A stretch of DNA of 64,000 nucleotides from Candidatus Kapaibacterium sp. (GTDB lineage: Bacteria > Bacteroidota > Ignavibacteria > Kapaibacteriales > NICIL-2). This document shows, in pieces, positions 12,003 through 28,394 of this stretch. The stretch is taken from positions 199,628-263,627 of the forward strand of contig JANWWF010000002.1 of the NCBI GenBank assembly GCA_025055755.1. Reading direction: 5' to 3'. The notes beneath the pieces are model-generated. The model made no database searches. It was not told where the DNA came from and saw nothing but the letters and a program-made list of their open reading frames with translations. The translations under genes were made by a program, and so were the position numbers. The stretch's first letter is position 1. Every line of letters starts with the position of its first letter.

Positions 12003-14039
12003 ATGATGCGAAGTCTGCGTGTGCTCAGCGTGGTTGTGTTTGTTCTCCCCTTTTGTGCATGGGCGACAACCAATGGTGAGCTACGGCTTATTCCACCACA
12101 GGAAAAACAGTTCTTTCGTGAAATCATTCATCCCTTACAACAGCATATTCCTCTGGTCCATCCGTTGGACAATACCGATGGAGTTGCATACAAAGTTTTT
12201 GATTCTCTTTTCAATGCATTCTCCTACTATGGCAGCAATCAAACGTGTGTGATGTGGGACCCTCAAACAAACGCATTCATTACTATTAAGCGGGGAGCGC
12301 TTGTCTCTCGTCCAGATAATCCCAGCCCAGATAAGAGCAACAACATTTTCATCGTGTGGACCACTGATAACGGTCAGTCATGGCAGCGTGTCGGTCCAGT
12401 TGTGGTGGGGAATCCCAGTGATGGATACCCACGCTATCCCGCGATAGCCTTAATTCGTTCTGATGTTAGTATTAACACATTGGATAATTCAATTTTCAAT
12501 TTCTATTGCCCACTCACCGATGGTAGCAGTTGGGCTGGAATGGTTGCGGGGTACCATATCAATGCACCAGGATCTGCACCGACAACAGTTGTGCTAAGGA
12601 ACCACATTGATCAGTCAACAGGCTATCGCTATACATTTGGCACAACATATTCAACTGCGTCGATTACTCGAGATGCCGAAAATGCTTTTGGTTTCGCTCT
12701 CAGCGGCTTAAGTGTCTCAGATGCCTCCGCGCCATATAGGGAAAACAATAATAATGCGATCATCAAAACAGATCTAAGCGCCACCGCTGTTGAAGTTTTC
12801 ACCTCGGAAATTCCCCCGCCCTTGCGAGCGGAGAATTTTGTTGACCCTCAGCAAGCAAATAGCCGGACAAACACGGAAGTTGCCTTCGACTTAGATTCCG
12901 AGGACAATCTCTATGCAGGTGTATTTGGATTATTTGCAGCGGCTGAAAATACTTCTCTTTTGACATTTGGTGTGACAAAATCCTCGGATAACGGGAAAAC
13001 ATGGAGTGATTGGAATATCCTTCCAACCTCAATCATTGAGGCATATGTGGCGGCAAACGGAGGCGATCCCACACAGTCAGGTTTCCGTTTCTCATGGGGC
13101 TGGTTGGGAGATGCCTCTGGCAACACTCGAGTGACTTCTGCAAAAGACTTCGTGGTTACTGGAAAAGATGAGTATAGTTTTGCTGCCCAGTTGGTTCTTA
13201 TTAGCGGACAATCTATCGTAGGGGTCCATTACGTTGAGGTGTACTACGAAAGAGGGCAATGGGGAATCCGCAAGATTGCTGATGCATCGCTGTTTGAAAC
13301 CAGTGAGCAAATGCGGTTCAACAATGGAGATAACTATGGCCCATCACAACTGGGATGTGAGTTACAGCTTGCACGAACGGCGGACTACAACGTGCTTTTG
13401 TTTAAAACATTAGAGGCTCGCTTTATAGTGTGGGGAGGAGATACGCTGTTGACGACAGATGTTGTTGTTAGCGTCCGGCCGAAAAATGGGAGCACATGGG
13501 AGCCACTTCGAAACGTGACGAGGAGTCGTATACTCGATCGTATTACCTGGATTCCTAAAGTCATCCCCTCGACAGCAGAGAATATTCCACTGCTTACAGT
13601 TCAATCTGCTTATCGCGGTTCTTCAGATCGCGAATATTACTGGGATAATCAATTTCTCCTGGCCGCGGCTTCTCAAGATCCAAGCCCAGAAGAGATTCTC
13701 CGCTATCGCCAGTATGTGACGTATTCGACATTCAACTACGAAGACCTACCGGAATGGAACCCTGCAACCTCGGTAGAAAAGCAGAGCAACAACGCTGCAG
13801 ACATAATGCTTCTCCCTAATCCTGCCAGCAACGATGTGACTTTTTACCGTTCGATTGCTTCGATGGATGCAACAATTGAAATTGTCAATTCGCTTGGCCA
13901 AGTGGTGTATCGCGCTGTTATCCCAGCAGGCGTATCCTACCATACATTCGATGTAACAGCAATGGCGCCTGGTGTCTATCATTGCCGCCTGCTGTATGGA
14001 CCCACGGTTAAAGTAGAACCGCTAAGTATTGTGCGTTAG
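12003..14039 (+). CDS. Secreted BNR/Asp-box repeat protein with T9SS C-terminal sorting domain (CTD)
   Basis: Signal peptide; Asp-box motifs TTDNGQSW, SSDNGKTW; C-terminus LLPNPASNDVTF...IEIVNSLGQVVYRAV...GVYHCRL matches Por_Secre_tail pattern. Confidence 0.7.
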   Translation: MMRSLRVLSVVVFVLPFCAWATTNGELRLIPPQEKQFFREIIHPLQQHIPLVHPLDNTDGVAYKVFDSLFNAFSYYGSNQTCVMWDPQTNAFITIKRGALVSRPDNPSPDKSNNIFIVWTTDNGQSWQRVGPVVVGNPSDGYPRYPAIALIRSDVSINTLDNSIFNFYCPLTDGSSWAGMVAGYHINAPGSAPTTVVLRNHIDQSTGYRYTFGTTYSTASITRDAENAFGFALSGLSVSDASAPYRENNNNAIIKTDLSATAVEVFTSEIPPPLRAENFVDPQQANSRTNTEVAFDLDSEDNLYAGVFGLFAAAENTSLLTFGVTKSSDNGKTWSDWNILPTSIIEAYVAANGGDPTQSGFRFSWGWLGDASGNTRVTSAKDFVVTGKDEYSFAAQLVLISGQSIVGVHYVEVYYERGQWGIRKIADASLFETSEQMRFNNGDNYGPSQLGCELQLARTADYNVLLFKTLEARFIVWGGDTLLTTDVVVSVRPKNGSTWEPLRNVTRSRILDRITWIPKVIPSTAENIPLLTVQSAYRGSSDREYYWDNQFLLAAASQDPSPEEILRYRQYVTYSTFNYEDLPEWNPATSVEKQSNNAADIMLLPNPASNDVTFYRSIASMDATIEIVNSLGQVVYRAVIPAGVSYHTFDVTAMAPGVYHCRLLYGPTVKVEPLSIVR

Positions 14040-14072
14040 AAATCAGCTTGTATCACTACCGAAAGAGATACA

Positions 14073-17000
14073 ATGAAAGTGCTTTCCATAGTGGTTGGAA
14101 TTGCTCTTGTCTTGAGTGCTGCATGGGCAGGAACTAATGGTAATCTTACAGGAACGGTAAAGGATAAAGACGGTAAACCAATTCAGGGCGCCACAATTCG
14201 TGTCATGGGGACCGTTCGTGGCGCTAAGGCTAAGAGTAATGGTGAATACCTCATCATCAACATACCAGCGGGGACCTACACGATCAAAGTCACAGCGGTC
14301 GGCTACAAAGAAAAGAATGTCGAGGCAACAATCCGTGCGGATCAAACAACTACCTTAAACATAGTTCTCGAGAGTGCTGAAGTCATGGGGAAAGAGGTAG
14401 TTGTTGAGTCTGCACGGCTCAAAATGGTGGACGACAAAGCAGTGGGAATAACAAGAGAGGTCTCTGGTGAACAAATACAACGCACCACTCGTGAAACTGC
14501 TCAACAAATAGCCCTCACGCAGGCGGGTGTGCTTGCAGCAGGCGGCGGTTTAGCAATCCGCGGAAGCCGTCCTTCGGACACACAAATCCGTATTGATGGA
14601 CAAGACGTTTCCGACCAAATTTCGGGGGGATTTGGTGTTGCCGCAGCAAAAGCAGGGATCGCATATGCTCCTACTGCCTCTGCGTTTGCAACAGAAGAGG
14701 TGCAGGTGCTCACGGGTAACTTCAGTGCTCAATATGGTAACGCGATGGGAGGAGTGGTCAATCAGGTAGTGAAAACTGGAAAAATTGATCGATATGAGGG
14801 ATTTCTCCGATGGAGAAGTGATGTCCCGTTTTTATTTGGGAAAGCAGGCAATGGTGTCCAAGCACTTGCTCCTTTGCAAAACACTTACGAGTTTGGAGTA
14901 GGAGGACCTATACCACTCTTAGATCGGTCGACGTTCTTTCTCACTACTCGTTATGTGACTGAGAAGTATCGGAGTTTTGGGCTTGATGTTCGTGATCGCG
15001 CCGGGAATTCAATAGGACAACTGCCAGATAATACATCTTCTATTCGCAACATCACAGGGCGCTTGGCATTCCAGTTTACCGATGACATCAAGCTAATCCT
15101 GGGAGGAACGTGGGGGCTCACGTCCTTGGCAATGGGGAACTGGGCCTGGTTGTATGCAAGAACTCCGGCGATGCTGTTACAGCCCAATCCAAACACTGGA
15201 CTAAATGACACACTCCTACTTTCCACTGTACCAGAAAATGTCGCAAAGGTTAATGCAGTCAACAATTTCATATACAGCTACTTTGCAAGAATCAACCATA
15301 TTCTCACCGAAACCAGCTTTTATGAGCTGACAGTGTCGTTCAACAATAATGTTGCGGAAGATGGGCGTCGTCGTATAGAGTTAGGGGAAGGATCGCTTCT
15401 TCGGAATGGTCAGCCTCTTGACCCATCGAAGGTCTCAACAGTAATGCCAAAAGATAACTTTTTCACAGGGTGGGATATTCTCAAACCAGTTGATGATTAT
15501 GTTCTGGATCGGACAAGCGGTCAGCAGGTACGTAAGACTGGTCCCCAGGGTGATAAGATCGTTGATTTCTACGCGGAAACGTATGGGAATGTGTATTTAG
15601 ACAATGACCCACGCCGCCCATTTTACACAACTGTCCCTAGTAACTTGACCGGATACGTTGAAGGTTCATCTGATGCTCTAAGCACACGGAATCCATATGG
15701 ACTACTGGGTATGTTTTATGCACGAGGTAACGATGAGGGAAGTAGTGGTACTCGAGGCTTTGAATTTACGAGTGCCAATTTCTGGCAAATTGATGGGAAC
15801 TATCAACTCAACCTTTTTGCGGGAGAGGTTCGTCACCTTCTGAAGGCGGGCATTGATGCTCGATTTTACACTGTTCGGCGTTATTACAACAGTCTTCCGT
15901 GGCTTGGCAATCCCTTTTACGATGTGTTTACTGACCAATGGGGCGGCGATATCTACAGCTTGACTCCTGAGGAACGGGCAGAGGGAAGCAAGCCAAAGCA
16001 TGCTGTTATCAGCGCTTTATACGTTGAAGATCAAATCTCCTACAAGGGAATCAATATCAATCCCGGGATGCGGATTGATGTGTTCAACCCCAGTACGACC
16101 TACCGTACCAATCCTGCCGATGCAGCATCACCGGACCGCAAGACTGCATCCATCAAAGTGCAGTTAAATCCGCGCATCTACATTTCTTACCCGATTGGTG
16201 AACGTTCATTTTTCTCAATCGCGTACGGGTGGTACACACAAATACCACGTTTTGAGTTGGTGTACAATAACACAGTCTCTGCTCTAACGCGGGGTAATAA
16301 CATCGTTGGTAATCCTGATCTCCGTCCAGAGAATGCCAAGCAGTATAACGTAGCATACAATGTTCAGCTCTCCGACGACTATGCGTTGGACGTCCAGGCA
16401 TTTTACAAGGACATTTATGGCTTGACAGGATTGGCATACGTACCCGATAATCGCTTCCCGTATGCGATAACATCGAATGGTGAATATGGTAATGCCCGTG
16501 GAATTGAAGTGACCTTCCGCAAGCGTCTGAGTGGGAATTTTGGTTTCAATGTGAACTATACTCTCTCCTTTGCACAAGGGACATCCTCGTCCTCTGGAGC
16601 AAACTATAATGTCATCATCAGCGGCGCTGATCCATATACCGGCAATCGTCTCTTTCCTCTTACTGAATATCCGCTTGATTATGATCGCCGCCATCGTTTC
16701 AACTACATTATTGATTTTGTCTGGGGTAAGGGGGAAGGCCCCTCGATTGGGGGAATTCATTTCTTAGAAAATGTTACGCTGAACTTTACAGGACTGTTCC
16801 AGACTGGGACTCCGTACACGAAACTCGATTTGCGCGGCAATCAGGTGGGGGACTTTAATGCAGAGCGTCGTCCGTCGGTCTGGACAATGGATATGCGCCT
16901 GCAGCGGGCAATACCACTTCGTGATCTCTTCGGCGAATCAATGGGGAATTCTGAACTCATTTTGTTCCTGGATGTCCTAAACTTACCCAATTTGACAGGT

Positions 17001-17315
17001 CCGATAAATGTTTATCCTCGTACAAGTGACCCAGATAATGATGGGGTAAGCCTGTATCGTCAAATTGGTGATTTCCCTCGCGGTCCATGGTATGCACGTC
17101 CCGATCCAACGAATCCGTCGACCATTGCGCAAAGTCAATATGACCGTGCTGGCAATCGCTTCTACACAAAAGAAGCAGATTTCAACAATGATGGTATTGT
17201 GACCCAGGAAGAACAATATCAATCATATATGCAATATGTGCGTGACGCAATGGCACGACGTCCGAATTATCAATTCCCGCGGCAAGTGTATTTCGGCGTC
17301 ATGCTTCGTTTTTAG
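14073..17315 (+). CDS. TonB-dependent outer-membrane receptor with N-terminal carboxypeptidase-regulatory-like domain
   Basis: 1080 aa; signal peptide, GTVKDKDGKPIQGATIRV...YTIKVTAVGYK CarbopepD_reg-like start, C-terminal beta-barrel ending in aromatic residue (MLRF). Confidence 0.65.
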   Translation: MKVLSIVVGIALVLSAAWAGTNGNLTGTVKDKDGKPIQGATIRVMGTVRGAKAKSNGEYLIINIPAGTYTIKVTAVGYKEKNVEATIRADQTTTLNIVLESAEVMGKEVVVESARLKMVDDKAVGITREVSGEQIQRTTRETAQQIALTQAGVLAAGGGLAIRGSRPSDTQIRIDGQDVSDQISGGFGVAAAKAGIAYAPTASAFATEEVQVLTGNFSAQYGNAMGGVVNQVVKTGKIDRYEGFLRWRSDVPFLFGKAGNGVQALAPLQNTYEFGVGGPIPLLDRSTFFLTTRYVTEKYRSFGLDVRDRAGNSIGQLPDNTSSIRNITGRLAFQFTDDIKLILGGTWGLTSLAMGNWAWLYARTPAMLLQPNPNTGLNDTLLLSTVPENVAKVNAVNNFIYSYFARINHILTETSFYELTVSFNNNVAEDGRRRIELGEGSLLRNGQPLDPSKVSTVMPKDNFFTGWDILKPVDDYVLDRTSGQQVRKTGPQGDKIVDFYAETYGNVYLDNDPRRPFYTTVPSNLTGYVEGSSDALSTRNPYGLLGMFYARGNDEGSSGTRGFEFTSANFWQIDGNYQLNLFAGEVRHLLKAGIDARFYTVRRYYNSLPWLGNPFYDVFTDQWGGDIYSLTPEERAEGSKPKHAVISALYVEDQISYKGININPGMRIDVFNPSTTYRTNPADAASPDRKTASIKVQLNPRIYISYPIGERSFFSIAYGWYTQIPRFELVYNNTVSALTRGNNIVGNPDLRPENAKQYNVAYNVQLSDDYALDVQAFYKDIYGLTGLAYVPDNRFPYAITSNGEYGNARGIEVTFRKRLSGNFGFNVNYTLSFAQGTSSSSGANYNVIISGADPYTGNRLFPLTEYPLDYDRRHRFNYIIDFVWGKGEGPSIGGIHFLENVTLNFTGLFQTGTPYTKLDLRGNQVGDFNAERRPSVWTMDMRLQRAIPLRDLFGESMGNSELILFLDVLNLPNLTGPINVYPRTSDPDNDGVSLYRQIGDFPRGPWYARPDPTNPSTIAQSQYDRAGNRFYTKEADFNNDGIVTQEEQYQSYMQYVRDAMARRPNYQFPRQVYFGVMLRF

Positions 17316-17351
17316 CGGGTTCATTATTGTAATGAATGTCCAACAAAATTT

Positions 17352-20300
17352 GTGATGGAGCCAATGAAAATGCATGCTTATGTAGTGAGCGCTATCCTAT
17401 TGCTGTTTGGCATATCCTCATGGGCACGCGACATAGATCGAGCGAAGTATGGCAAAAAACTTGTACAGCCTCAAGCAGCGCAGTTCAATGACCTACGGCA
17501 AAACACCGTTAGCCGGGTACGATTTATGATCACCAATTATGGTATTTTTGGTCTCGACGTAGCACGCAATCAGGGGGGAGGATTTTGGCCACGTGGCTCA
17601 ACAAATGAGTACATTTTTGGTGGGGGGATATGGTTCGGAGCAATCAAGACGAAGGATGGGTTACCTCGGAAGATGAGTGTAATCTCCTATAATCCAAACT
17701 CAGGTGCCTCATGGATGACACCGGGATCGATTGATGATGGGGACGAAGCAGATCGATCGCCAGAAGCAGTGTTGAAAAACCGTGTGTACCTTAGTACGGA
17801 TTTTGTTCGCGCAAATGGTCTGCCACGTAATCCTGCGGATGGCCCTAACTGGCCAATCTGGGATAGCAATCCCAATGACACGTTAGCAAATCGTTCCGTT
17901 ATCAAGGATAGAACGCGTTACCTCGGCTTCTACATTAATGATGTAGATAAACGAAATATTGCGACCTTCCCTAAGGGTCCAGCGTTTATTTCGCAGGAGG
18001 ATATCTTCACCGTTTATAAGGACACTGACCTTCGAGTGTATGAGATCGGGGAAGATGCTGCAAAGGCGGAGGGATATCCGCTCCGCATCCAGGTAGAGCA
18101 AACTGTGTACACATGGGGATTTGGTGAATACGCAAACTTCTACTTTATTCGTTACAACATTATCAACCGTTCGACAGATACACTCTATGAGTGCTGGATG
18201 GCTCCAGCATTTGATTTCGACTTAGCGGCAGCACCCAATTTTGCAGCTGGTGCGGGTAATGATCGCGTAAGCTACTATTTCCAGGATACCACACTCAACT
18301 TGGCATACCAATGGACCAATACTGATCGGGGAGAGCGAGGACGCCGCTTTGGGTATGTTGGTATGACATTTCTAGAAAGCCCTGCAGTCGATGAAAATGG
18401 CTTTATTCGTCGCGATAAACTCTATTATCCTCTCAGCGAGCAACTGGGATTGCGGACATTCCGAAACTGGGTTATTGACATTGACCCGAAGACTACAATT
18501 GAGCGATATGACTTTATGGCGTCGGGGGCGCGAGATGGGGATACTGGGCCGGGGGATAAACGCTTCCTCATGGCCACAGGACCATTCAATATGCGGCCAG
18601 GGGATACGGCTCGTGTGGTTGTAGGGACGATTTTTGCCCTTCCTGTAAAGGAAGAAGCAGATGGGACGGTAGAGGATTTAGTGAATCTTGTGCGTCGGAC
18701 TCAGTTTGCCCAAAGAGTGTATGATAATGGCTTTGCAGCTCCTGAACCTCCTGAACCCCCAAGAGTAACTACCCAACCGCTCAACCACGCGATTATTGTC
18801 AGCTGGGACACTACAAGCTACGCCTCTTACGACCGCGAGGAAAAGGGAATGGATATCATGGGATTCCGCATCTTCCGTTCGCGTGTTCCCACCCAGGATA
18901 CTTTTGACGTTGACTTTCGCTCACCAAGTGCTGAATATCCTGGCGGCCGTGGACCGTTCGGGTGGAAGCAAATAGCTGAGTGGATAACGCCATCGCCCTT
19001 CGTAATGACTGCAATTATGTCGGATAGCTCGAACATGTTAAGTGCGCGTTATCCATGGATACGCATCTTTCCTCGCGCATCCAAATCCAGCTATCGAACC
19101 TTGTATCCAGGATTTCTTAGCTCATCGGATGTGACAAATGACAGTGTTATTTTGATTCGGCGTCTTCCGAATACCACCAGCGAACCATGGAGAAGTTTTT
19201 GGCAGCCTCTTGTGCCTCAGCAGACGTATTCGAATCCGATACGGTATGATACGCTGACGCTCGGTATCATTCGTATTTTGCCGGGGGGAACACTTCCTCC
19301 ACTTCCTACTACTACCACCGATACAGCCACTATGAACCGTGCGATGCTGGTTCTCTGGCCTCAGATTACCTCAGGATTAGCACGCCTTCAATGGTTCCAA
19401 GATGACTGGGTTGATCTTCCATGGGCACGAGCGATAATCCGTAACTACCTCGATAGCGTTACAAACAATCGCACCTTCCTCGATTTGGGAGATGATAATG
19501 GAGATGGTGTTATCAATCGTGATGAAGATCTCCGTCGCCGTGAGGAAATTTTGAATAACGTCGAGTATTACTACAAAGTTGTTGCCTTGGACGAAGGGGA
19601 CTATGTCCAAGCCACGCCTATCAAAACCAGTATCTCTGTTGATTTACTCAATGTTGTTCAAGGGTTTGCTTTAGCGCCGGGACCATATCGGCAGCCTTCT
19701 ATTGAAACCACCTATGATCCAAATCAGCTCGGTGGACTTTATAACTTTCGTCTTATTCCCAAAGACCCCGATCGTTTTGCTCAATTGTTTGGGGGGCATG
19801 AAATTGAGCTCGAGTTTCAACCTTCGGTATCTGGATTCAGCGGATACAATTGCCTCGATACACTGTGGAATAACAATGCCACCTTTTACAAGGGCATTTA
19901 TGGCAATGAATTGATTGTGCGGGACAAGACAACGGGGAAGGAGCTTAACCGATACAATGTCCTCTATGAACCTGCCGATTGCTTGTTTGATAACTTTTAC
20001 TCGGATGTTGCAATGCTCTATGTATCGCCGCAGACGGGGCAATACCTATCGTTCTGTGAGGACATGCTACGGGGAGCAAATGATACCACGCTGTTTGTGC
20101 ATCCGTTTAATACCAGCGTTACTGCCCGTGGTGGATCGTGGACCACAGATAAGCCTTGCTTGGGAGGTGATCGCACGATTGCGGGGACTTTCGGAATAGC
20201 ATTTGACTACTACATTCAGCAGTTTGGAGGGATTTTCCGTCCCTACCGTATCGCGAAACTCAGTGGTAATGCGAACACCTTTTTAGAATTTCGTCCGCGT

Positions 20301-21455
20301 CGTGCTGAACTAATTCCTAAGGCAGAACCAGTCCAGGTGAATTATCGAACACTCCGCTTCCAGCGTTTCAATAATGGAGCAGGTATCTATGAAGTGGAGT
20401 TTCTTCCTGGAGGAGTTGAGACCATCACTACAACTTTCCTTCGACGGCGAGGTATTGGACAATTCGATACGATAAGACGGACATTTGATGCGTCCTATCT
20501 TAATGTTCGAGTGCGGAACATACGTACTTACAAACGACCTCTCCCGAACGGAGACTCCGTTCTCGTTCAATACGGTGACGATGTTCCCCATGTTAGCCAG
20601 GCATTACCAGCCAATCTAAGCGATTACAATCAAGATGGCTCGGTGAGCACCGTCCCATACCCCCACCCGCGTCTTGTTCCCATAGGATCGTTCAACCTGT
20701 CAGCCTATGCATGGAAAAATGGTCGTTACACCCCAGCGACGTGGAGTATTCGCGATGCGGTGACAGCGCGTGATACTCAAGCAGCTGCTAATAACAGTGG
20801 TGCTCCAGTTGGTACTCAAGGGAGGTACTACCTTTCGACGGTTACCCCCGAGGGAGACACGATTGATTTTACCCATGCACTTCTGATCGATGGAGCTACA
20901 TTCTGGCTAGATTTTGCAGGGAAGGGAGGACGCAATGGAACCGCAGCAGGACGGCAAACACCTCTGCCACCAGACACTGCAACGGCAACAGTGGACTTCA
21001 GGCCAGGAGATAAGATTATCATTGAAACGATAGGTGGTCCGTTTGGCTTACCACTTCCTGGAGCGAAGGTAACGTTCAAGGTGTCTGATGTACAAGTCCC
21101 CCAAGATCGCCTGACAGATGCAGATTTGGACAACATTGTTATTGTTCCTAATCCCTATGTCATCACCCACGTGGGGCAAAAGTCTTCCTATGATGCTAAG
21201 ATTTATTTCACTCGATTACCAAAGGAATGCACCATCAAAATCTACACAGTCGCTGGTGATCTTATACGAACAATTCGGCATGTCGATCAAGATGGCACAT
21301 TCCGCGTGGGTATGGACGTGTGGGATTTGCTCAGTGACAATCGCCAGCGAGCAGCATCACAAGGCTTGATTGCAGTAATTGAAACGCCAAATGGTGCGCA
21401 AACGGTCAAGAAGTTTGCTGTCGTTGTTGGCGGTGCACGTATTCTGGGACGATAG
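17352..21455 (+). CDS. porU: Large secreted protein with T9SS CTD; candidate PorU-like C-terminal signal peptidase
   Basis: 1367 aa, signal peptide; C-terminus NIVIVPNPYVITHV...KIYTVAGDLIRTI...VWDLLSDN...GLIAVIETPNG is a Por-type sorting domain; gene ends 2 nt before the PorV-like gene (porU-porV synteny). Peptidase C25 domain not verified. Confidence 0.4.
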   Translation: MMEPMKMHAYVVSAILLLFGISSWARDIDRAKYGKKLVQPQAAQFNDLRQNTVSRVRFMITNYGIFGLDVARNQGGGFWPRGSTNEYIFGGGIWFGAIKTKDGLPRKMSVISYNPNSGASWMTPGSIDDGDEADRSPEAVLKNRVYLSTDFVRANGLPRNPADGPNWPIWDSNPNDTLANRSVIKDRTRYLGFYINDVDKRNIATFPKGPAFISQEDIFTVYKDTDLRVYEIGEDAAKAEGYPLRIQVEQTVYTWGFGEYANFYFIRYNIINRSTDTLYECWMAPAFDFDLAAAPNFAAGAGNDRVSYYFQDTTLNLAYQWTNTDRGERGRRFGYVGMTFLESPAVDENGFIRRDKLYYPLSEQLGLRTFRNWVIDIDPKTTIERYDFMASGARDGDTGPGDKRFLMATGPFNMRPGDTARVVVGTIFALPVKEEADGTVEDLVNLVRRTQFAQRVYDNGFAAPEPPEPPRVTTQPLNHAIIVSWDTTSYASYDREEKGMDIMGFRIFRSRVPTQDTFDVDFRSPSAEYPGGRGPFGWKQIAEWITPSPFVMTAIMSDSSNMLSARYPWIRIFPRASKSSYRTLYPGFLSSSDVTNDSVILIRRLPNTTSEPWRSFWQPLVPQQTYSNPIRYDTLTLGIIRILPGGTLPPLPTTTTDTATMNRAMLVLWPQITSGLARLQWFQDDWVDLPWARAIIRNYLDSVTNNRTFLDLGDDNGDGVINRDEDLRRREEILNNVEYYYKVVALDEGDYVQATPIKTSISVDLLNVVQGFALAPGPYRQPSIETTYDPNQLGGLYNFRLIPKDPDRFAQLFGGHEIELEFQPSVSGFSGYNCLDTLWNNNATFYKGIYGNELIVRDKTTGKELNRYNVLYEPADCLFDNFYSDVAMLYVSPQTGQYLSFCEDMLRGANDTTLFVHPFNTSVTARGGSWTTDKPCLGGDRTIAGTFGIAFDYYIQQFGGIFRPYRIAKLSGNANTFLEFRPRRAELIPKAEPVQVNYRTLRFQRFNNGAGIYEVEFLPGGVETITTTFLRRRGIGQFDTIRRTFDASYLNVRVRNIRTYKRPLPNGDSVLVQYGDDVPHVSQALPANLSDYNQDGSVSTVPYPHPRLVPIGSFNLSAYAWKNGRYTPATWSIRDAVTARDTQAAANNSGAPVGTQGRYYLSTVTPEGDTIDFTHALLIDGATFWLDFAGKGGRNGTAAGRQTPLPPDTATATVDFRPGDKIIIETIGGPFGLPLPGAKVTFKVSDVQVPQDRLTDADLDNIVIVPNPYVITHVGQKSSYDAKIYFTRLPKECTIKIYTVAGDLIRTIRHVDQDGTFRVGMDVWDLLSDNRQRAASQGLIAVIETPNGAQTVKKFAVVVGGARILGR

Positions 21456-21457
21456 TA

Positions 21458-22561
21458 TTGCAACTACGGAGAATTAAAGCTATGCAAGTAGTATTTGTGA
21501 TTACTGTTGTTTATTCGCTTTTGAGTGTTTGCAGCAGTGTCATTGCTCAGCCTCCACAAGCGCAAGGCTCGTCGGCAGGAGAGTTCCGTAAGGTTGGTGC
21601 TGCTGGAGCCCAATTTTTGAAGATCGGTGTTGGGGCACGCGCCAACGGCATGGCTGGAGCATTTACTGCTATCGCGAATGACCCCTCGGCCCTCTTTTAC
21701 AACAATGCTGGCATTGTAGATATCAAAGGTTATATGGGCTCGTTCTCCTACATTCAGTGGTTTGGCGGCTATTCCCACAATTTTATCGCAGGGATTGTGC
21801 CGATGGGAGAGAATTACCGTGCTGCTTTATCTGTCACTTCGTTTACAAGCGGTCCTATACCGTTTGCCACTATTCAAGATGAAAACCGACTCAATACGAC
21901 GTATAGCATCACAGACGTAGCAATCGGTGGGACCTTTGCTGCCCAGCTTACTGACCAGTTTTCGTTTGGTGTAACTCTAAAGTACATCCAGAACGGCATT
22001 GGGGGCATGAGTGCCAGCGGAATTCTAGCAGATGTTGGCACTATGTACCGTTTTCGAGGAGTGCGATTAGGATTTTCCATTAGCAATTTAGGTCCGCCTC
22101 TCCAATTTTCGGGGGGAGATTTGAACTTCCGCACCGACTTGCTACGCGAGCTCCAATATCAACAAATAGATGCCTCCTACTTGGTGAATCCATTCAATGC
22201 ACCAATTTCGTTGAAGGCAGGATTAGCAGCAGACTTGACGACGGAACTATTGGGATTGTATGATTCCGATCCGAATCTTGCGATTAACCAATCACGAGAG
22301 CATCGGTGGCTTATGGCCCTTGAATTTGAAACACTTTCCGATGTCCCAGAACAGCTTGCAATAGGAACAGAGTATACCTGGAATGATTTGCTATCCATTC
22401 GAGCAGGCTATCGCTATAACCAAAGCGTGTTTGGCTTTAGTGGTGGTATAGGGATTCGCTACATAGGCAGCGGCTTCGAGGGTATGCTTGATTACTCAAT
22501 TCATCCCAGCTCAACCCTTGGCATAGTTAATCGTTTTTCCTTGACAGTTCGTCTTGATTGA
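21458..22561 (+). CDS. porV: PorV/LptO-like T9SS outer-membrane beta-barrel (FadL/OmpP1-like)
   Basis: 367 aa; signal peptide then GAAGAQFLKIGVGARANGMAGAFTAIANDPSALFYNNAGI, matching the conserved PorV N-terminal motif. Confidence 0.65.
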   Translation: MQLRRIKAMQVVFVITVVYSLLSVCSSVIAQPPQAQGSSAGEFRKVGAAGAQFLKIGVGARANGMAGAFTAIANDPSALFYNNAGIVDIKGYMGSFSYIQWFGGYSHNFIAGIVPMGENYRAALSVTSFTSGPIPFATIQDENRLNTTYSITDVAIGGTFAAQLTDQFSFGVTLKYIQNGIGGMSASGILADVGTMYRFRGVRLGFSISNLGPPLQFSGGDLNFRTDLLRELQYQQIDASYLVNPFNAPISLKAGLAADLTTELLGLYDSDPNLAINQSREHRWLMALEFETLSDVPEQLAIGTEYTWNDLLSIRAGYRYNQSVFGFSGGIGIRYIGSGFEGMLDYSIHPSSTLGIVNRFSLTVRLD

Positions 22562-22586
22562 TCCACTGTGTCGCACCTTGATTGTT

Positions 22587-22640
22587 CGAGTTCTCTTTGA
22601 TGTAGAACTCACAGCGCAGAGCAAAGCTTTTTTCCCCTTA
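22587..22640 (+). terminator. Possible intrinsic terminator after porV (gagttct/agaactc hairpin, downstream T-run)
   Basis: 7-bp stem 22588-22594/22604-22610, T6 at 22628-22633; spacing is loose. Confidence 0.3.
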
Positions 22641-22651
22641 ATGTAAGTGCC

Positions 22652-24085
22652 ATGATGAGGCACAAGTGGTGGCTTACGGTGATTGCGCTGTTGGCAATAC
22701 AGCTATCGGTTATTGGCCAGCAGACGTTTCCTCTGTCTCTTTCAATATCTCAGTTCCGGGCAGATTCGATACGAACACGCGTAGAAGTAGCGTACTCGAT
22801 TGCGGATACACATCTAGTCCACCAAATACATAGCAGCCATCCCGACTATGCTGTTGTTGCGGCAGAAATTCAATTTTTCATTAGTAGCCCTGCTTATTCC
22901 GATTCTCTAACGGTGGTTTTGGAAAGTACAAAGTCTATTAGGGATACAACTTGTGCACTGCTGGTCGGTAAGCGGGTTTTCCTCCTCCTGCCTGATCAAT
23001 ATACCTTGACTGTTCGTATACGCGATGCGCTCCGCCAACGGAGTGCAGTTTTGGAACGTAAAATACCATTAGTGGTGCGTAGCTTAAGTGAACGCTCTGT
23101 GCTTAGTGCAAGCAGCATCGAGTTAGCACAATTTATTCGCTATCACAATACTGATGATGTAGAGCAGAAAAATCCCTCATTTGTCAAGAATGGGTTTTAC
23201 GTTGTTCCTCTGCCATCTCACACGTATGAAGGTACAGCTCCAATACTCTATGCCTACACGGAGCTATATGGACTTGAGCAATGCCGGTGTGACAGTATCC
23301 AGCTTCATTATCGTATCCTGGATGCTGCCCACAACGAAGTGTTTGACCTACGATACGTGAGACCGGTTGTTGGAGAGGCCCAGGCAGAGATTATATCTAC
23401 TTCGCTGGATGGTTTAGCAAGTGGCGTGTACTACCTTACATTAGCGGTCGAGCGCTCAACAAAAGAAGAACTATTGCTGGGACGACAACAGTTTTTTCTT
23501 CTCAATCCCGAGCTACCTCCCCAACAGCCAACAGTCTTGAGCGAAGACGAGCTTTTTCTCCAAAGTCCCTTTGCTACTATGGATAATGCCCAGCTGGAAG
23601 TTGAGATTGCCTCCGCGCGTTTTATTGCACGTGCTACTGAATTAGATCCATACTTTCAGCTCACAGACATCGCTGCAAAACGGCGCTTTGTGTTCCGCTT
23701 CTGGCTGCAGCGTGATCCTGATCCATCAACTCCAGTTAATGAGCGGTATGAAGAATTCCGTCGTGCACGGGAGTATGCCGCAAAATTTTACAGGACTCCC
23801 CGCTTCCCAGAGGGCTGGAATAGTGACCGAGGACGTGTACTTCTAAAGTACGGTTTCCCCACACAAATCGATCGAGCATACTTCAACATGGACGGAGCGC
23901 ATCCCCATGAAATCTGGCGTTACGATAATGTGCAAGGAGGGGTAATATTCGTGTTTGTTGATCAACAGGGGACAGAAAACTTTGTCCTCGTGCATTCGAC
24001 GGCGCTTAATGAAATTCGAAATGAAAACTGGTATCGGCAATTTGCCATGCCGAATTACCTTGATCCAAACGCTCGGGTTCGATAA
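22652..24085 (+). CDS. GWxTD-domain protein (secreted)
   Basis: 477 aa, signal peptide; C-terminal region ...FPEGWNSDRGRVLLKYGFPTQ...EIWRYDN... contains the GWxTD-type core motif. Confidence 0.55.
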   Translation: MMRHKWWLTVIALLAIQLSVIGQQTFPLSLSISQFRADSIRTRVEVAYSIADTHLVHQIHSSHPDYAVVAAEIQFFISSPAYSDSLTVVLESTKSIRDTTCALLVGKRVFLLLPDQYTLTVRIRDALRQRSAVLERKIPLVVRSLSERSVLSASSIELAQFIRYHNTDDVEQKNPSFVKNGFYVVPLPSHTYEGTAPILYAYTELYGLEQCRCDSIQLHYRILDAAHNEVFDLRYVRPVVGEAQAEIISTSLDGLASGVYYLTLAVERSTKEELLLGRQQFFLLNPELPPQQPTVLSEDELFLQSPFATMDNAQLEVEIASARFIARATELDPYFQLTDIAAKRRFVFRFWLQRDPDPSTPVNERYEEFRRAREYAAKFYRTPRFPEGWNSDRGRVLLKYGFPTQIDRAYFNMDGAHPHEIWRYDNVQGGVIFVFVDQQGTENFVLVHSTALNEIRNENWYRQFAMPNYLDPNARVR

Positions 24086-24092
24086 GCGCCGT

Positions 24093-24956
24093 TCCATGCG
24101 ATTGCATATTTTGAAAGCGCTGGGATGGATAGCTTCCAAGACGGGGAAACGCGGAAGAAAAATACTGGCATTGGGAATTGGATTGGCACTGTATTACTTG
24201 CTGCCAGAGCGACGACGCCTAACTGTTGAGAACTTGCGCTATGCATTTCCTGCGACAACAAAAGCACAGATACTGAGATTAGCACGGCGATGCTTTATCA
24301 ATTTAGCGCTTGTGTTTTTAGAACTTCTTGCAACGCCCTATCTTTCAATTGCTATCCTTCGCAGCTATTTCCATTTTGTAAATCCAGAAGTCATTCGCCA
24401 GACAAAGACACAAGGACAGGGAGTAGTCCTGCTCAGTGCCCATTTGGCAAACTGGGAATGGTCTGCTATTGTTGCGGCTCTTGAATTCGGCGAGCCGCTA
24501 CTGGTCGTAGTAAAACAACAGCGAGACTATGTGATCAATCAGTGGCTTGATAGGGTGCGGCAGCGGACAGGGAATATCCTTGTTCCCATGCACCGAGCTG
24601 CTAAATCTATGCTTCAGTGGTTAGAGAAAGGAGGCATCGTTGCACTATTAGTGGATCAAGCTGCAGAGCCAACCAGCGATGTGTTTGTTCCTTTTTTCGG
24701 GCGCCCTGCAATCACGTACAAGGCTCCAGTTTTACTTGCTCGCCGAATGAATGCACTTTTAGTTGTTGGTTACAGCCTTCGAGATAAAGATGGTAGGTAT
24801 GTCGTACAATTTGTGCCAATACCTCGTGCAAATGATCCATCTGTGCCTGTCGAAGATGTCGTGGCTGAGTATACGCACGTATTAGAGTCAGTGATTCGTC
24901 AGGTACCAGAGCAGTGGGTGTGGCAACATAATCGCTGGAAATATCTCCAACACTGA
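24093..24956 (+). CDS. Lipid A biosynthesis (LpxL/HtrB-family) late acyltransferase
   Basis: Start chosen at MRLHIL (the annotated longer ORF overlaps the upstream gene); typical lauroyl/myristoyl acyltransferase layout with N-terminal TM and HX4D-like region. Confidence 0.6.
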   Translation, partial: SMRLHILKALGWIASKTGKRGRKILALGIGLALYYLLPERRRLTVENLRYAFPATTKAQILRLARRCFINLALVFLELLATPYLSIAILRSYFHFVNPEVIRQTKTQGQGVVLLSAHLANWEWSAIVAALEFGEPLLVVVKQQRDYVINQWLDRVRQRTGNILVPMHRAAKSMLQWLEKGGIVALLVDQAAEPTSDVFVPFFGRPAITYKAPVLLARRMNALLVVGYSLRDKDGRYVVQFVPIPRANDPSVPVEDVVAEYTHVLESVIRQVPEQWVWQHNRWKYLQH

Positions 24957-24965
24957 TCGTTCGGT

Positions 24966-25754
24966 ATGGTTATTGAACTGCATGAGCGTGTTGCCCTGGT
25001 AGGAGGGGCCACCCAAGGTATCGGATGGGCTATTGCGATAGCACTTGCTCGAGCAGGAGCAACAGTAATTCTGCTTGGGCGGCGCCAGCATGTATTGGCG
25101 CAACGTCTCGAAGAGCTTGAGAACATCACAGGGAAAAAACATAGAGCTATTGTCGTCGATTATAATTCTCCCACTGCAGGTACCGACATTATCGCGGCTC
25201 TCCAACAGCAGCAACTAAGTCCCGATATTCTGATCAACAACGTAGGTGGTCCCCCGCCCGGCGCTATTATTGATGCAACTCCAGAATCTTTTCACCAAGC
25301 ACTTCATCAGCTTATTCTCGTAATGCACGAGGTTCTGCAATACGTGCTTCCCATGATGAAGCATCAGCAATGGGGAAGGATTGTCAACATTATTTCTACT
25401 TCGGTGCGACAACCTCTCGAGGGATTGGGGGTATCGAATACGATTCGAGCAGCAACAGCAGCATGGGCGAAGACACTGTCGCTGGAAGTAGCCCAGTATG
25501 GAATTACTGTAAACAACATTCTCCCTGGTGCAACACGTACAGAACGCTTGCAGCAATTGATAGTGGCAAAAGCGCATCAGCGAAACATGCTAGAAAGTGA
25601 TGTTGAGCAAGAAATGCTTGCAGAAATTCCTATGCGACGCTTTGCACAACCCGAAGAGATTGCAGCTCTGGCAGTCTTTCTATGCTCGAACTTTGCAAGT
25701 TACATTACTGGCGAGTCTATCCGGGTCGATGGGGGGCGCAGTCGATGCTTGTAG
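24966..25754 (+). CDS. Short-chain dehydrogenase/reductase (FabG-like)
   Basis: 262 aa; N-terminal VGGATQGIGWAIA Rossmann motif, SDR catalytic region. Confidence 0.7.
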   Translation: MVIELHERVALVGGATQGIGWAIAIALARAGATVILLGRRQHVLAQRLEELENITGKKHRAIVVDYNSPTAGTDIIAALQQQQLSPDILINNVGGPPPGAIIDATPESFHQALHQLILVMHEVLQYVLPMMKHQQWGRIVNIISTSVRQPLEGLGVSNTIRAATAAWAKTLSLEVAQYGITVNNILPGATRTERLQQLIVAKAHQRNMLESDVEQEMLAEIPMRRFAQPEEIAALAVFLCSNFASYITGESIRVDGGRSRCL

Positions 25755-25760
25755 GAAGGT

Positions 25761-25795
25761 ACAAAAAAAGAAGGCGGCATTACTTGCGCCGCCGA
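25761..25795 (-). terminator. Intrinsic terminator for minus-strand initiator tRNA (ggcggc/gccgcc hairpin + U-run on minus strand)
   Basis: Stem 25773-25778/25788-25793; A7 run 25763-25769 on plus = U-run after hairpin on minus strand. Confidence 0.5.
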
Positions 25796-25981: not shown

Positions 25982-28390
25982 ATGCGTATTGTCCTTTCTT
26001 GGTTGCAAGAACTTGTCGAGTGGCGCGGTACGGTATCTGAACTTTCCTCGCTATTAGTAAATGAAGGTATCGAAGTCGAGGCTATTGAGGAGGTAGGGAT
26101 ACACACAGAGGCAATTGTTACAGCGCAAGTTATCGAAGTAATGCCCCATCCCGCTGCAGATCATCTTGCGGTGTGTACGGTGTATGATGGTAGCTCAAGG
26201 CGCCAAGTCGTATGTGGGGCACCTAATGTTCAAGTTGGACAACTTGTTGCACTTGCTCTTCCCGGTGCTCGGTTGCCGAATGGACAAGTGCTTGACAGCC
26301 GAAAAATTCGGGGTATTGATTCGCAAGGAATGCTTTGCTCCGAGTCGGAATTAGGTATCGGGGAAGACCATAGTGGAATTGTTGTACTCGATGAAAAAAT
26401 TGGGGTTGGGGTTCCATTGTATAAGGTGTATCCACCAGATGTTGTTTTGGAAATAGGAATCACACCCAATCGTGCCGATGCGCTGTCCCATTATGGTGTT
26501 GCGCGGATTATTGCCGCCGCTTCGGGATGTACAGCTCGTCTACCTGCAGTGGAAGAGATACAGGCGCAACAAGTCATTCCAATCGAGATCGTAGAGCCTG
26601 ATCTGTGTCCACGGTATGCAGGTGCTTTATTGGAGGGAGTCCATCCGTATCCATCGCCCCCCTGGTTAGCGCGTCGGTTGCAGCTTGCCGGAGTCCGCTC
26701 CCGGAATCTGATTGTTGATGTAACCAACTATGTTATGCTTGAATGCGGACAACCACTTCATGCATTTGATTATGAACGGCTTGCCCAGGGGCGTATCGTA
26801 GTTCGCCGCGCGATTCAAAATGAACGGATAACAACTCTGGACGGAGTGGAACGGACGCTTGACAGTGAAACGCTCTGTATTTGTGATGCTGAGCGTCCGC
26901 AAGCTGTGGCGGGCATCATGGGCGGATTAGAGTCTGCAATCAGTAGTGAGACCAGGCAAGTATTGATCGAGTCTGCATATTTTGCACCTCGCAATATTCG
27001 TCGAACGGCGAAAACATTGGGGCTGCACACAGATGCAGCATATCGCTTCGAGCGAGGTACAGACGTCGAAATGGTGCCATACGCCTTACGCCGCGCAGCA
27101 ACCTTAATTGCTCGTTTGAGCAATGCTCAGATAACCCATTGGGCTGACTGTTATCCTCGTCCATGGAAAGAACCTACTGTGGAGTTCCGCTTCGACCATG
27201 CACGTCGAGTGTTAGGAATGGATATTAGCCGATCAACTTTCATATCAGCGATAGCAGGACGTGGCTTCAATATCATCTCAGAGGGGGAGAAAGGCCTCAC
27301 TGTGAGGGTGCCATCATTTCGGCATGATGTTCGTTCCGAAATTGACCTTATCGAAGAGGTAGCTATTGGGGTCGGTTATGACACAGTTCCTCCTTCGCCA
27401 TCTGTAACCCTTTCTTTGTCCCTGGATACAGTTCCAGCGCCACTTGAGGTGTCTCCCGTGCGGCAGGATGTACGGCAGTACTTAGCAGCAATTGGCTTCC
27501 ACGAAGCATTGAGTTATAATCTCAGTGATCCTGCAACCCTCTTGGAAGCGGAAAAGGCGGTGGAAATCGCTAATGCGTTGGGACGAGAACGGAGTGTGCT
27601 GCGGCAGTGGCTTTTGCCAACTATGGTGGAAATTCTCTCGCGGAATGCACGCTGTGGAGTGCGAATTATTCGGGTTTTTGAAATAGGCAAGGTTTTCCGC
27701 CAAGAGCACACTATCACAAGCACAGGCATTCCGGTGACAGAGGAAGAGCACTTGTGCATTGCATTAGCAGGGATATATCGCGAGCGCCATTGGCTTGAGC
27801 CATCGAGACCAGTGGATTTTTTCGATCTCAAAAGTGCAGTTGAGGGGCTAACGAGACGGTTTAGAATGCTCTGTCAATGGCGAGTTGCATCAAGGATGTC
27901 CCATCTTCATCAATGGTTGCAAGACCCGGTCGTGGAGATTCTTCTCGATGGTCAAGTGATCGGTTATGCAGGATCTATTTCCCCTCGACTGTTGCGTCAA
28001 TACGACATTGCCGACGGTGCTGTGGTTGCAGAACTTTCAATGAAGCCTTTCTACGAACGTCGGATACAGTGGGATCATTATCAGCCTCCGTCGCCATTTC
28101 CAACAGTGGTGCGAGATATCGCAGTAGTAGTGGATAGTACAATTCCCAGTGCTGCTCTTGAGGCAACAATTCGAGACGCTATTGGTGAGCTTGTGTCCGA
28201 TGTGGCGCCATTTGATGTCTTTGAGCATCCGGGGCTTGGCGAAGGCAAAAAAAGTATTGCATTTACTCTTACCTTTAGCTCTTCTGAGCGAACATTAACA
28301 GATGAAGAGGTTAACATGGCCGTCGAACAAGCAGTGAAGGCACTTGCGTCTGCTTATGGTGCTGTGCTACGATCGTCAACCACTCAGTGA
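25982..28390 (+). CDS. pheT: Phenylalanine--tRNA ligase beta subunit
   Basis: 802 aa; MRIVLSWLQELVEW start, tRNA-binding, B3/4, B5 and FDX-ACB layout typical of PheT; no pheS adjacent. Confidence 0.9.
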   Translation: MRIVLSWLQELVEWRGTVSELSSLLVNEGIEVEAIEEVGIHTEAIVTAQVIEVMPHPAADHLAVCTVYDGSSRRQVVCGAPNVQVGQLVALALPGARLPNGQVLDSRKIRGIDSQGMLCSESELGIGEDHSGIVVLDEKIGVGVPLYKVYPPDVVLEIGITPNRADALSHYGVARIIAAASGCTARLPAVEEIQAQQVIPIEIVEPDLCPRYAGALLEGVHPYPSPPWLARRLQLAGVRSRNLIVDVTNYVMLECGQPLHAFDYERLAQGRIVVRRAIQNERITTLDGVERTLDSETLCICDAERPQAVAGIMGGLESAISSETRQVLIESAYFAPRNIRRTAKTLGLHTDAAYRFERGTDVEMVPYALRRAATLIARLSNAQITHWADCYPRPWKEPTVEFRFDHARRVLGMDISRSTFISAIAGRGFNIISEGEKGLTVRVPSFRHDVRSEIDLIEEVAIGVGYDTVPPSPSVTLSLSLDTVPAPLEVSPVRQDVRQYLAAIGFHEALSYNLSDPATLLEAEKAVEIANALGRERSVLRQWLLPTMVEILSRNARCGVRIIRVFEIGKVFRQEHTITSTGIPVTEEEHLCIALAGIYRERHWLEPSRPVDFFDLKSAVEGLTRRFRMLCQWRVASRMSHLHQWLQDPVVEILLDGQVIGYAGSISPRLLRQYDIADGAVVAELSMKPFYERRIQWDHYQPPSPFPTVVRDIAVVVDSTIPSAALEATIRDAIGELVSDVAPFDVFEHPGLGEGKKSIAFTLTFSSSERTLTDEEVNMAVEQAVKALASAYGAVLRSSTTQ

Positions 28391-28394
28391 ATGC

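Follow-up and report, generated by a model that had tools for sequence, protein, structure and literature searches.

A giant secreted protein encoded beside a PorV/PorQ-family barrel in Candidatus Kapaibacterium is not PorU: a candidate surface-docked partner of a TonB-dependent transporter

A stretch of 64,000 nucleotides from Candidatus Kapaibacterium sp. (assembly GCA_025055755.1, contig JANWWF010000002.1, positions 199,628 to 263,627), hereafter called the window, carries a gene for a very large secreted protein immediately 5' of a gene for a PorV-family outer membrane barrel. Is this a porU-porV pair from a type IX secretion system (T9SS), as a sequence-only reading of the region had proposed, or a pair of some other kind? 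We find that the 1367-residue protein is not PorU and is a member of an uncharacterised family of giant secreted proteins. With about even confidence, we propose that it is a T9SS-exported surface protein sitting on a cognate barrel, where it would display a probable glycan-capture domain beside a transporter.

The giant protein is not PorU

The open reading frame (ORF) runs on the + strand from a GTG at 17352 to 21455. The probable start is the ATG at 17364, which corresponds to an invariant Met column in the alignment and gives a protein of 1363 amino acids (aa), the length of P0001. Its predicted layout comprises a signal peptide, a beta-supersandwich N-domain, an FN3-like region with an insertion and a calcium-loop-like stretch, a beta-rich body, and a tail with the fold of a T9SS C-terminal domain (CTD).

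The hidden Markov models (HMMs) for PorU (NF033707) and the C25 peptidases (PF01364) did not match the window protein at E<=0.01, nor did they match six diverse orthologues at E<=0.1 or the homologue from Rhodothermus. NF033707 was present in the searched library, where it matched the CTD of a Rhodothermus FG-GAP protein. Pfam gave no match to the whole protein, and PDB sequence searches with the single sequence and with a 41-sequence profile returned nothing, even at E<=10. The sole NCBIfam match aligned residues 1254-1358 with the C-terminal 87 positions of the model for PorZ (E 0.002); the PorZ equivalog (NF052228) scored 16.5 against a cutoff of 260, through the tail alone. In the 41-sequence alignments, no His beyond the tail is invariant or nearly so, and C281 is the only near-invariant Cys there; within the tail, C1293 and H1310 are near-invariant.

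AlphaFold2 models were compared with the PDB for residues 1-690 (predicted local distance difference test, pLDDT, 83.4) and 640-1367 (pLDDT 76.4). Residues ~700-775 are poorly modelled because the split at 640/690 cuts an FN3-like domain. Neither half matched a gingipain- or caspase-like fold, and the match to PorU covers 135 residues only and is of Ig/CTD type. PorU was accordingly rejected as the identity of 17352-21455, which lacks a PorU/C25 HMM match, a gingipain-like fold and a conserved Cys/His dyad.

The porU-porV pair proposed earlier would make 17352-21455 a large PorU, with a C25 sortase, and 21458-22561 its PorV. The layout that suggested it is real, in that a gene whose product has a CTD-fold tail stands immediately 5' of a PorV-family gene; such an order, however, is not defining for PorU. 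Sequence, fold and conserved residues all contradict the pair, the folds being a supersandwich and Ig-like sandwiches, and the barrel fails the PorV equivalog. We regard this explanation as scarcely credible.

What the protein does belong to is a large family. The search returned 410 homologues (top score 3190 bits), the named ones all 'hypothetical'; among the best 120, 119 had no precomputed Pfam domain. Members range from 1130 to 1700 aa, and at least 194 GTDB species representatives encode one. Since there are 410 homologues and the gene order is kept in every assessable locus, the observation is not a matter of chance.

Residues ~45-462 (17484-18737, + strand) form a galactose-mutarotase-like beta-supersandwich in the AlphaFold2 model, a fold typical of modules that bind or process carbohydrates. 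Invariant acidic residues in this N-domain are D224/D226, D288/D290, N303/D304, E342, D378, D402 and D442. The domain is not covered by any Pfam model. A HMMER scan of 1.84 billion representatives gave 1475 clusters at E<=1e-3, which included orthologues of 1300-1800 aa and many proteins of 510-570 aa. Ten of the shorter relatives (525-1076 aa) were scanned, and all had a Por_Secre_tail match, seven of them above the Pfam cutoff. Two short relatives are fused to an SBBP propeller or to a purple-acid-phosphatase N-domain, and the named ones are called 'T9SS type A sorting domain-containing protein' and come from Kapabacteria. The N-domain is thus, as judged from these sequence matches, a recurrent T9SS cargo module.

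The N-domain has an insertion hot spot at 18387-18401 (residues ~346-350, between LESPAV and DENGF), where the domain match is split in many orthologues of 1500-1800 aa. In orthologue P0094 (1838 aa) a whole Reg_prop beta-propeller is inserted here (residues ~373-670), which matches hybrid two-component sensor structures (3v9f, E 4e-29). P0094 scores 91 bits with the PorZ model; this was rejected as a link to PorZ, being due to the inserted propeller and still below the cutoff of 260. Further along the window protein, a near-invariant stretch resembling a calcium-binding loop (DLGDDNGDGVINRDED, 19482-19529, residues ~711-726) is followed on its 3' side by an FN3-type strand motif (YYYKVVALDEGDY, 19560-19601, residues ~737-750). 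A matching FN3 start (W..GF.IFR) ~220 residues earlier suggests that an FN3-like domain is split by a large insertion.

The C-terminal tail

The last ~100 residues (~1265-1363, 21144-21440, + strand) adopt the T9SS CTD fold, an Ig-like 3+4 beta-sandwich, in the AlphaFold2 model. Foldseek analysis of the tail gave a single significant match, to PorZ (E 1.5e-4, probability 1.0), and the nearest known domain is the retained CTD of that protein. The claim that 17352-21455 ends in a sorting domain therefore stands in structural terms, but not as a Por_Secre_tail match, since those HMMs miss the tail. From the model, the tail would be grouped with the retained PorZ-type CTDs and not with the standard type-A signals.

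It is also unusually conserved. Among giant orthologues the mean pairwise identity is 0.61 in the tail and equally in the N-domain, the two best-conserved parts of the protein, and 0.38 in the body. The corresponding value for the tails of the neighbouring cargo protein (12003-14039) is 0.27, against 0.24 for the body of that protein. A tail at 0.61 beside one at 0.27 is more in keeping with a lasting, specific partner than with a signal that is thrown away. Retained CTDs seated on cognate PorV-like barrels have been described, PorU on PorV and PorZ on PorQ (PMC10202324), and type-B CTD proteins are reported to be held via PorP/SprF-like barrels encoded beside them (PMC10202324, PMC9143113).

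The PorV/PorQ-type barrel

The barrel gene occupies 21482-22561 on the + strand and specifies 359 aa. The deposited protein (P0261), which is 100% identical, begins at ATG 21482 with a GGAG 10 nt upstream; because it begins there, the gap to the giant gene is 26 nt. The 2-nt spacing given in the sequence-only reading was an artefact of a mechanical TTG start, while all four of its ORFs were recovered on the + strand where it had placed them.

The product (analysed as the 367-codon ORF) passes the PorV/PorQ family model NF033709 with 161.8 bits against a cutoff of 90 (residues 50-365), and the PGAP name of the identical deposited protein is 'PorV/PorQ family protein'. It matched Flavobacterium johnsoniae PorV in the PDB (6h3i_F, E 1.5e-5), and there was a weak match to Toluene_X. 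Its scores with the equivalog models are all far below cutoff: 66.3 against 250 for PorV (NF033710), with residues 39-220, the N-terminal half alone, aligned; 65.2 against 220 for PorQ (NF033711), with query residues 49-320 aligned; and 53.7 against 325 for PorV2 (NF052325). The earlier description of 21458-22561 as PorV-like thus holds for the family and fails for PorV proper. On these scores the barrel appears to represent a third PorV/PorQ subfamily, being neither a PorV, a PorQ nor a PorV2 equivalog, and we propose it as the cognate anchor of the giant protein.

Conservation of gene order

Related loci were collected from Ignavibacteria, Kapabacteria and Chlorobiota by tblastn with the window proteins and were counted after removal of duplicates. 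A PorV-like barrel gene lies directly downstream of the large gene in all assessable loci (76/76), and a transporter-like gene lies directly upstream in 63/63. The 640-725-aa orthologue of the CTD-bearing propeller protein is directly upstream of the transporter in 54 of 58 loci; a GWxTD gene follows the barrel in 55 of 67, and LpxL follows the GWxTD gene in 52 of 64. The transporter (14073-17315), which had been regarded as merely intervening, proves to belong to the conserved core. The fallback offered by the sequence-only reading, a novel large cargo co-opting a porV neighbourhood, comes close to the evidence, but the link is much tighter, and older, than co-option.

The homologues derive from Kapabacteria, Ignavibacteria (including Melioribacter) and metagenome-assembled genomes (MAGs) labelled Chlorobiota, including Chloroherpeton. 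At 70-81% identity, hot-spring MAGs of Chlorobiota/Kapabacteria are the closest relatives of the window, and the transporter and barrel show 84-88% identity among near relatives. Some 40 of 85 related loci have, directly upstream of the cluster, an extracytoplasmic function (ECF) sigma factor gene and a gene of ~450 aa, possibly for an anti-sigma factor (e.g. L001 2563-4507 and L003 2585-4484). The window and its nearest relatives are without this pair and have AsnB (asparagine synthase) and an M61 peptidase there.

A cluster of the Ignavibacteria/Kapabacteria type, at 35-40% identity to the window protein, was also found in several records titled 'uncultured Hyphomicrobiales bacterium' (binchicken co-assemblies that are GTDB representatives; L020, L027, L052, L058, L059, L065, L069 and L074-L076). 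These titles are probably wrong.

The Rhodothermales counterpart

A tblastn search of plasmids with the barrel gave one match, pRMAR01 of Rhodothermus marinus DSM 4252. Five genes stand here in order, specifying an FG-GAP propeller with a FlgD_ig/Por_Secre_tail tail, a CarboxypepD_reg/Plug TonB-dependent receptor, a hypothetical protein of 1132 aa, a PorV/PorQ family protein and an Amidase_2 protein. The third of these products, of 1132 aa, is distantly homologous to the window's giant protein. The tail is the best-kept segment between the two (37% over 107 residues, E 7e-14); next comes a stretch made up of the later half of the N-domain and the FN3-like start (24% over 346 residues). The Rhodothermus barrel scores 215.9 with the PorV family model, and 95.8, 81.1 and 62.9 with the PorQ, PorV and PorV2 models, respectively, all below the equivalog cutoffs. 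The window transporter is likewise homologous to the Rhodothermales cluster receptor (26-32% identity), so that transporter, giant protein and barrel each match a counterpart, with the order kept.

With the Rhodothermus homologue as query, 4179 matches to the Rhodothermales giant family were obtained among the scored candidates; the members of 1085-1166 aa show 61-78% identity, besides one 99%-identical copy of the query. The family is chromosomal in other genomes, and the five-gene order recurs in Roseithermus sacchariphilus RA and in a 4.6-Mb MAG. Because the Rhodothermales repeat the order, we take the conserved core to be a quartet made up of a propeller cargo with a type-A tail, a transporter-like barrel, the giant protein and a PorV/PorQ-type barrel, kept in several deep-branching lineages of the Bacteroidota. 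The fifth gene differs between lineages: in Rhodothermales, Amidase_2 replaces GWxTD at that position, carrying a Por_Secre_tail in at least one genome (the L088 MAG), and the lipopolysaccharide (LPS) genes are absent.

Plasmid pRMAR01 also bears a type I-U CRISPR-Cas system (cas7u, csb2, cas3u; L086 18630-24102) ~6 kb downstream of the cluster. Since the cluster lies elsewhere on Mb-scale contigs, including at least one chromosome (CP020382.1), pRMAR01 may behave as a chromid.

Could the barrel simply be the general PorV shuttle of these lineages, the giant protein an ordinary large T9SS cargo or adhesin, and their adjacency an inherited operon? The family model is passed, F. johnsoniae PorV was matched in the PDB, and the N-domain is a common cargo module. 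The barrel may even be the sole PorV of its lineage, given a BLAST survey in which PorV, SprA and Plug were the only T9SS proteins reported for Melioribacter and Ignavibacterium (PMC11705866). A general PorV would, however, hardly score 66 against 250 over its N-terminal half alone; the barrel is no nearer to PorV than to PorQ, and the pair occurs in Rhodothermales with Pfam PorV matches. A disposable tail is unlikely to have been kept at 61% beside a neighbour's 27%, nor does simple inheritance sit well with a pairing found in 76/76 loci and across classes. We therefore consider this alternative unlikely.

The transporter and the propeller protein

The transporter gene (14073-17315, + strand) specifies a TonB-dependent-receptor-like outer membrane barrel of 1080 aa. 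A CarboxypepD_reg domain stands at the N-terminus, the sequence KEVVVES resembles a TonB box, a Plug domain is present and the last residue is Phe (...MLRF). The earlier identification as a protein of this type is borne out by Pfam (CarbopepD_reg_2, 72.4 bits; Plug, 29.8 against 23.9), and plugs of the FepA/PirA type were matched in the PDB. The SusC/RagA model (TIGR04056) scores 54 against a cutoff of 368.

The first gene of the cluster (12003-14039, + strand) specifies a secreted BNR/Asp-box protein of 678 aa, a sialidase-like propeller with a type-A T9SS tail at residues ~605-678 (nt ~13815-14036). The predicted Por-type sorting domain was upheld, with 26.1 bits against a cutoff of 23 for TIGR04183; with PF18962, for which the cutoff is 27, the whole protein scores 26 and the tail by itself 31. 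Por_Secre_tail is found in 21 of 23 orthologues, and the family profile matches the SprA-bound substrate CTDs 8glk_D and 8glj_D in the PDB. The BNR label is faint in the window protein, where BNR_2 scores 19.5 against 31.4 and the Asp-boxes TTDNGQSW and SSDNGKTW are visible, but it is supported at the level of the family: BNR_2 matches 15/23 orthologues and BNR 9/23, and the family profile finds sialidase/BNR structures at E 6e-8, mostly via the Asp-boxes. Because R97 is the sole invariant Arg in the family, a catalytic sialidase Arg triad is unsupported.

The region can thus be called a T9SS-related block, as had been proposed, on account of its type-A CTD cargo, its barrel of the PorV/PorQ family and the CTD-fold tail of the large protein; the porU-porV pair is the part of that description which is lost.

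Proposed role

We suggest the following course of events. The T9SS would carry the giant protein across the outer membrane via its C-terminal domain, as the CTD fold alone would imply. The tail would be kept and would dock on the extracellular side of the cognate barrel, whose gene begins 26 nt downstream. The anchored protein would display its carbohydrate-binding-type supersandwich at the cell surface, where it would probably capture a glycan or a cell-wall-type polymer. Processing of the captured polymer may fall to the secreted propeller protein of the cluster, and uptake of the products to the neighbouring TonB-dependent transporter. Fold, conservation and gene order are the grounds on which we infer that the T9SS exports the protein, that the tail is retained and binds the barrel, that glycan is bound and that the transporter cooperates.

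Export and docking on its own barrel are suggested by the CTD fold, by a tail conserved like an interaction surface, and by a barrel that is always next and is neither PorV, PorQ nor PorV2. Less certain than docking is what the displayed part does; that it captures a glycan-type polymer which feeds the transporter is suggested by the supersandwich, its reuse in small T9SS cargo, the Reg_prop insert of glycan-sensor type, the BNR and FG-GAP propeller cargo, the ECF pair and the CTD-bearing Amidase_2.

A broader form of this proposal, which we hold possible but doubtful, is that the quartet represents an unrecognised ancient outer membrane machine of Rhodothermia, Ignavibacteria, Kapabacteria and Chlorobiota-affiliated bacteria. 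A T9SS-delivered protein would be permanently docked and have a TonB-energised barrel as partner, serving perhaps SusD-independent import or as a stand-in for the PorU/PorZ complex.

Several observations weigh against surface docking and glycan capture. TIGR04183 and PF18962 match neither the whole giant protein nor its last 120 residues at E<=10, and the remainder of the window holds no other T9SS genes, its genes being housekeeping (PheT, RNase Y, FeoB, DnaG, PtsI, UvrA, DnaN and others). The supersandwich fold, itself seen in a model, would by itself be no proof of glycan binding. There is no SusD-like gene among the cluster neighbours, nor a glycoside hydrolase with a known active site or a sugar-catabolic gene in the cluster. 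The trio of transporter, giant protein and barrel is very highly conserved and apparently single-copy, and is therefore more like core machinery than a substrate-specific uptake locus. Finally, the downstream neighbours in most Ignavibacteria/Kapabacteria loci are LPS genes (LpxL, GT9/heptosyltransferase).

The last two observations raise the question of whether the cluster specifies a T9SS-independent complex for outer membrane or LPS biogenesis, in which a FadL/PorV-type barrel holds a large extracellular protein beside another barrel, as in BamG-BamH. A conserved, apparently single-copy trio which GWxTD, LpxL and GT9 genes follow in most of these loci would be in keeping with such a complex, and a FadL-like barrel that binds a surface protein outside the T9SS has a precedent (PMC12578637). 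It is at odds with the T9SS CTD fold of the tail and with the canonical type-A CTD cargo that opens the cluster in both lineages. In Rhodothermales, moreover, the LPS genes are absent and Amidase_2 stands there, in the L088 MAG with a Por_Secre_tail. We judge this explanation quite improbable.

The adjoining LPS genes could equally be read with the PorZ-like tail, the giant protein and barrel then being a non-C25 counterpart of the PorU/PorV/PorZ/PorQ attachment complex, in which the supersandwich binds glycan or LPS and aids the processing of type-A cargo. The barrel is at least as near to PorQ as to PorV, and many type-A CTD proteins occur in lineages reported to be without PorU, PorZ and other T9SS proteins (PMC11705866). 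Neither a peptidase-like fold nor a conserved nucleophile/His pair is present, however, and the invariant transporter partner would be left unexplained. The same module also occurs in Rhodothermales, which possess a standard T9SS. We give this possibility very little credence, and retain docking of a T9SS-exported protein on its own barrel as our preferred explanation.

Neighbouring genes and the remainder of the window

The genes described above are part of a co-directional run on the + strand from 12003 to 25754, with short gaps between genes; all five envelope proteins of the run have signal-peptide-like N-termini. The lineage-specific fifth gene (22652-24085, + strand) specifies a secreted GWxTD-domain protein of 477 aa (TIGR04514, 70.5 against 28), for which no relative was found in the PDB. 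It is followed by an LpxL-like lipid A acyltransferase gene (24096-24956, + strand; Lip_A_acyltrans, 143 bits), for which the mechanical ORF begins at TTG 23955 and the probable start is ATG 24096.

A promoter and terminator scan of 11.8-26.1 kb gave a number of sites not above that in shuffled sequence. Close to where the co-directional run ends, the sole strong terminator-like site is a GC-rich hairpin at 25773-25793, just 3' of a short-chain dehydrogenase/reductase (SDR) gene, which has a 7-bp stem with A/T runs on both sides. After pheT, a 547-aa ORF (28344-29987) shows weak coiled-coil-type Pfam matches below the cutoffs; it is probably structural and unrelated to the cluster.

Comparison with known systems

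In the literature searched, the giant protein family and the present cluster are not described. We found no mention of the GWxTD domain, nothing combining Ignavibacteria with PorU, and nothing useful on Kapabacteria and the T9SS or on pRMAR01. Knowledge of the T9SS comes almost wholly from Bacteroidia and Flavobacteriia, and the processing and anchoring of cargo in Ignavibacteria, Kapabacteria and Rhodothermia are little known; the cluster is a concrete, testable candidate for cargo anchoring in these groups, and its cultured hosts include Rhodothermus marinus, Roseithermus sacchariphilus and Melioribacter roseus. The N-domain and the whole giant family merit new family models, and annotation suggesting PorU should be avoided. 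If docking is true, it would add a third class of CTD-protein/barrel pair and tie T9SS-displayed proteins directly to TonB-dependent transport.

In its proposed way of working, the nearest known system to the giant protein and its barrel is PorZ-PorQ of the Porphyromonas gingivalis attachment complex. PorZ has two Reg_prop beta-propellers in ~750 aa, whereas the giant proteins have 1130-1700 aa and a supersandwich N-domain; since both equivalog tests fail, the giant protein and barrel fall outside the PorZ and PorQ families. The genes porZ and porQ are not known to adjoin each other or to have a transporter partner. The present pair, in contrast, is always adjacent and always 3' of a TonB-dependent-receptor-like gene.

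With PorU-PorV it shares gene order alone, a large protein with a retained CTD being specified immediately 5' of a PorV-family barrel gene; the giant protein has neither the C25 domain, the fold nor the Cys/His dyad, and the barrel fails the PorV equivalog. In type-B CTD systems such as SprB-SprF, the cargo gene is reported to adjoin that of a cognate PorV-like barrel of the PorP/SprF type, which anchors the cargo on the surface (PMC9143113, PMC10202324). The present tail is, however, type-A/PorZ-like, the barrel belongs to the PorV/PorQ family and not to PorP/SprF, and a transporter is part of the conserved unit.

The cluster resembles SusC/SusD loci in having a transporter extended at its N-terminus by CarboxypepD_reg beside surface binding or processing proteins and, in many loci, an ECF sigma factor with the ~450-aa gene. 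It differs from them in the lack of SusD, in its SusC/RagA score (54 against 368) and in an anchor which would be a barrel-bound CTD and not a lipid; it is also apparently single-copy and much more conserved than typical substrate-specific SusC/SusD loci. In BamG-BamH, the loops of a 14-strand FadL/PorV-type barrel bind an extracellular protein, and the barrel itself lies against a second one (PMC12578637), the partners there being BamA and surface lipoproteins, with no CTD; no sequence relationship to the present cluster was found. We therefore propose that the cluster encodes an undescribed protein family and a third type of pair between a CTD protein and a PorV-family barrel, one that is coupled to a TonB-dependent-receptor-like barrel.

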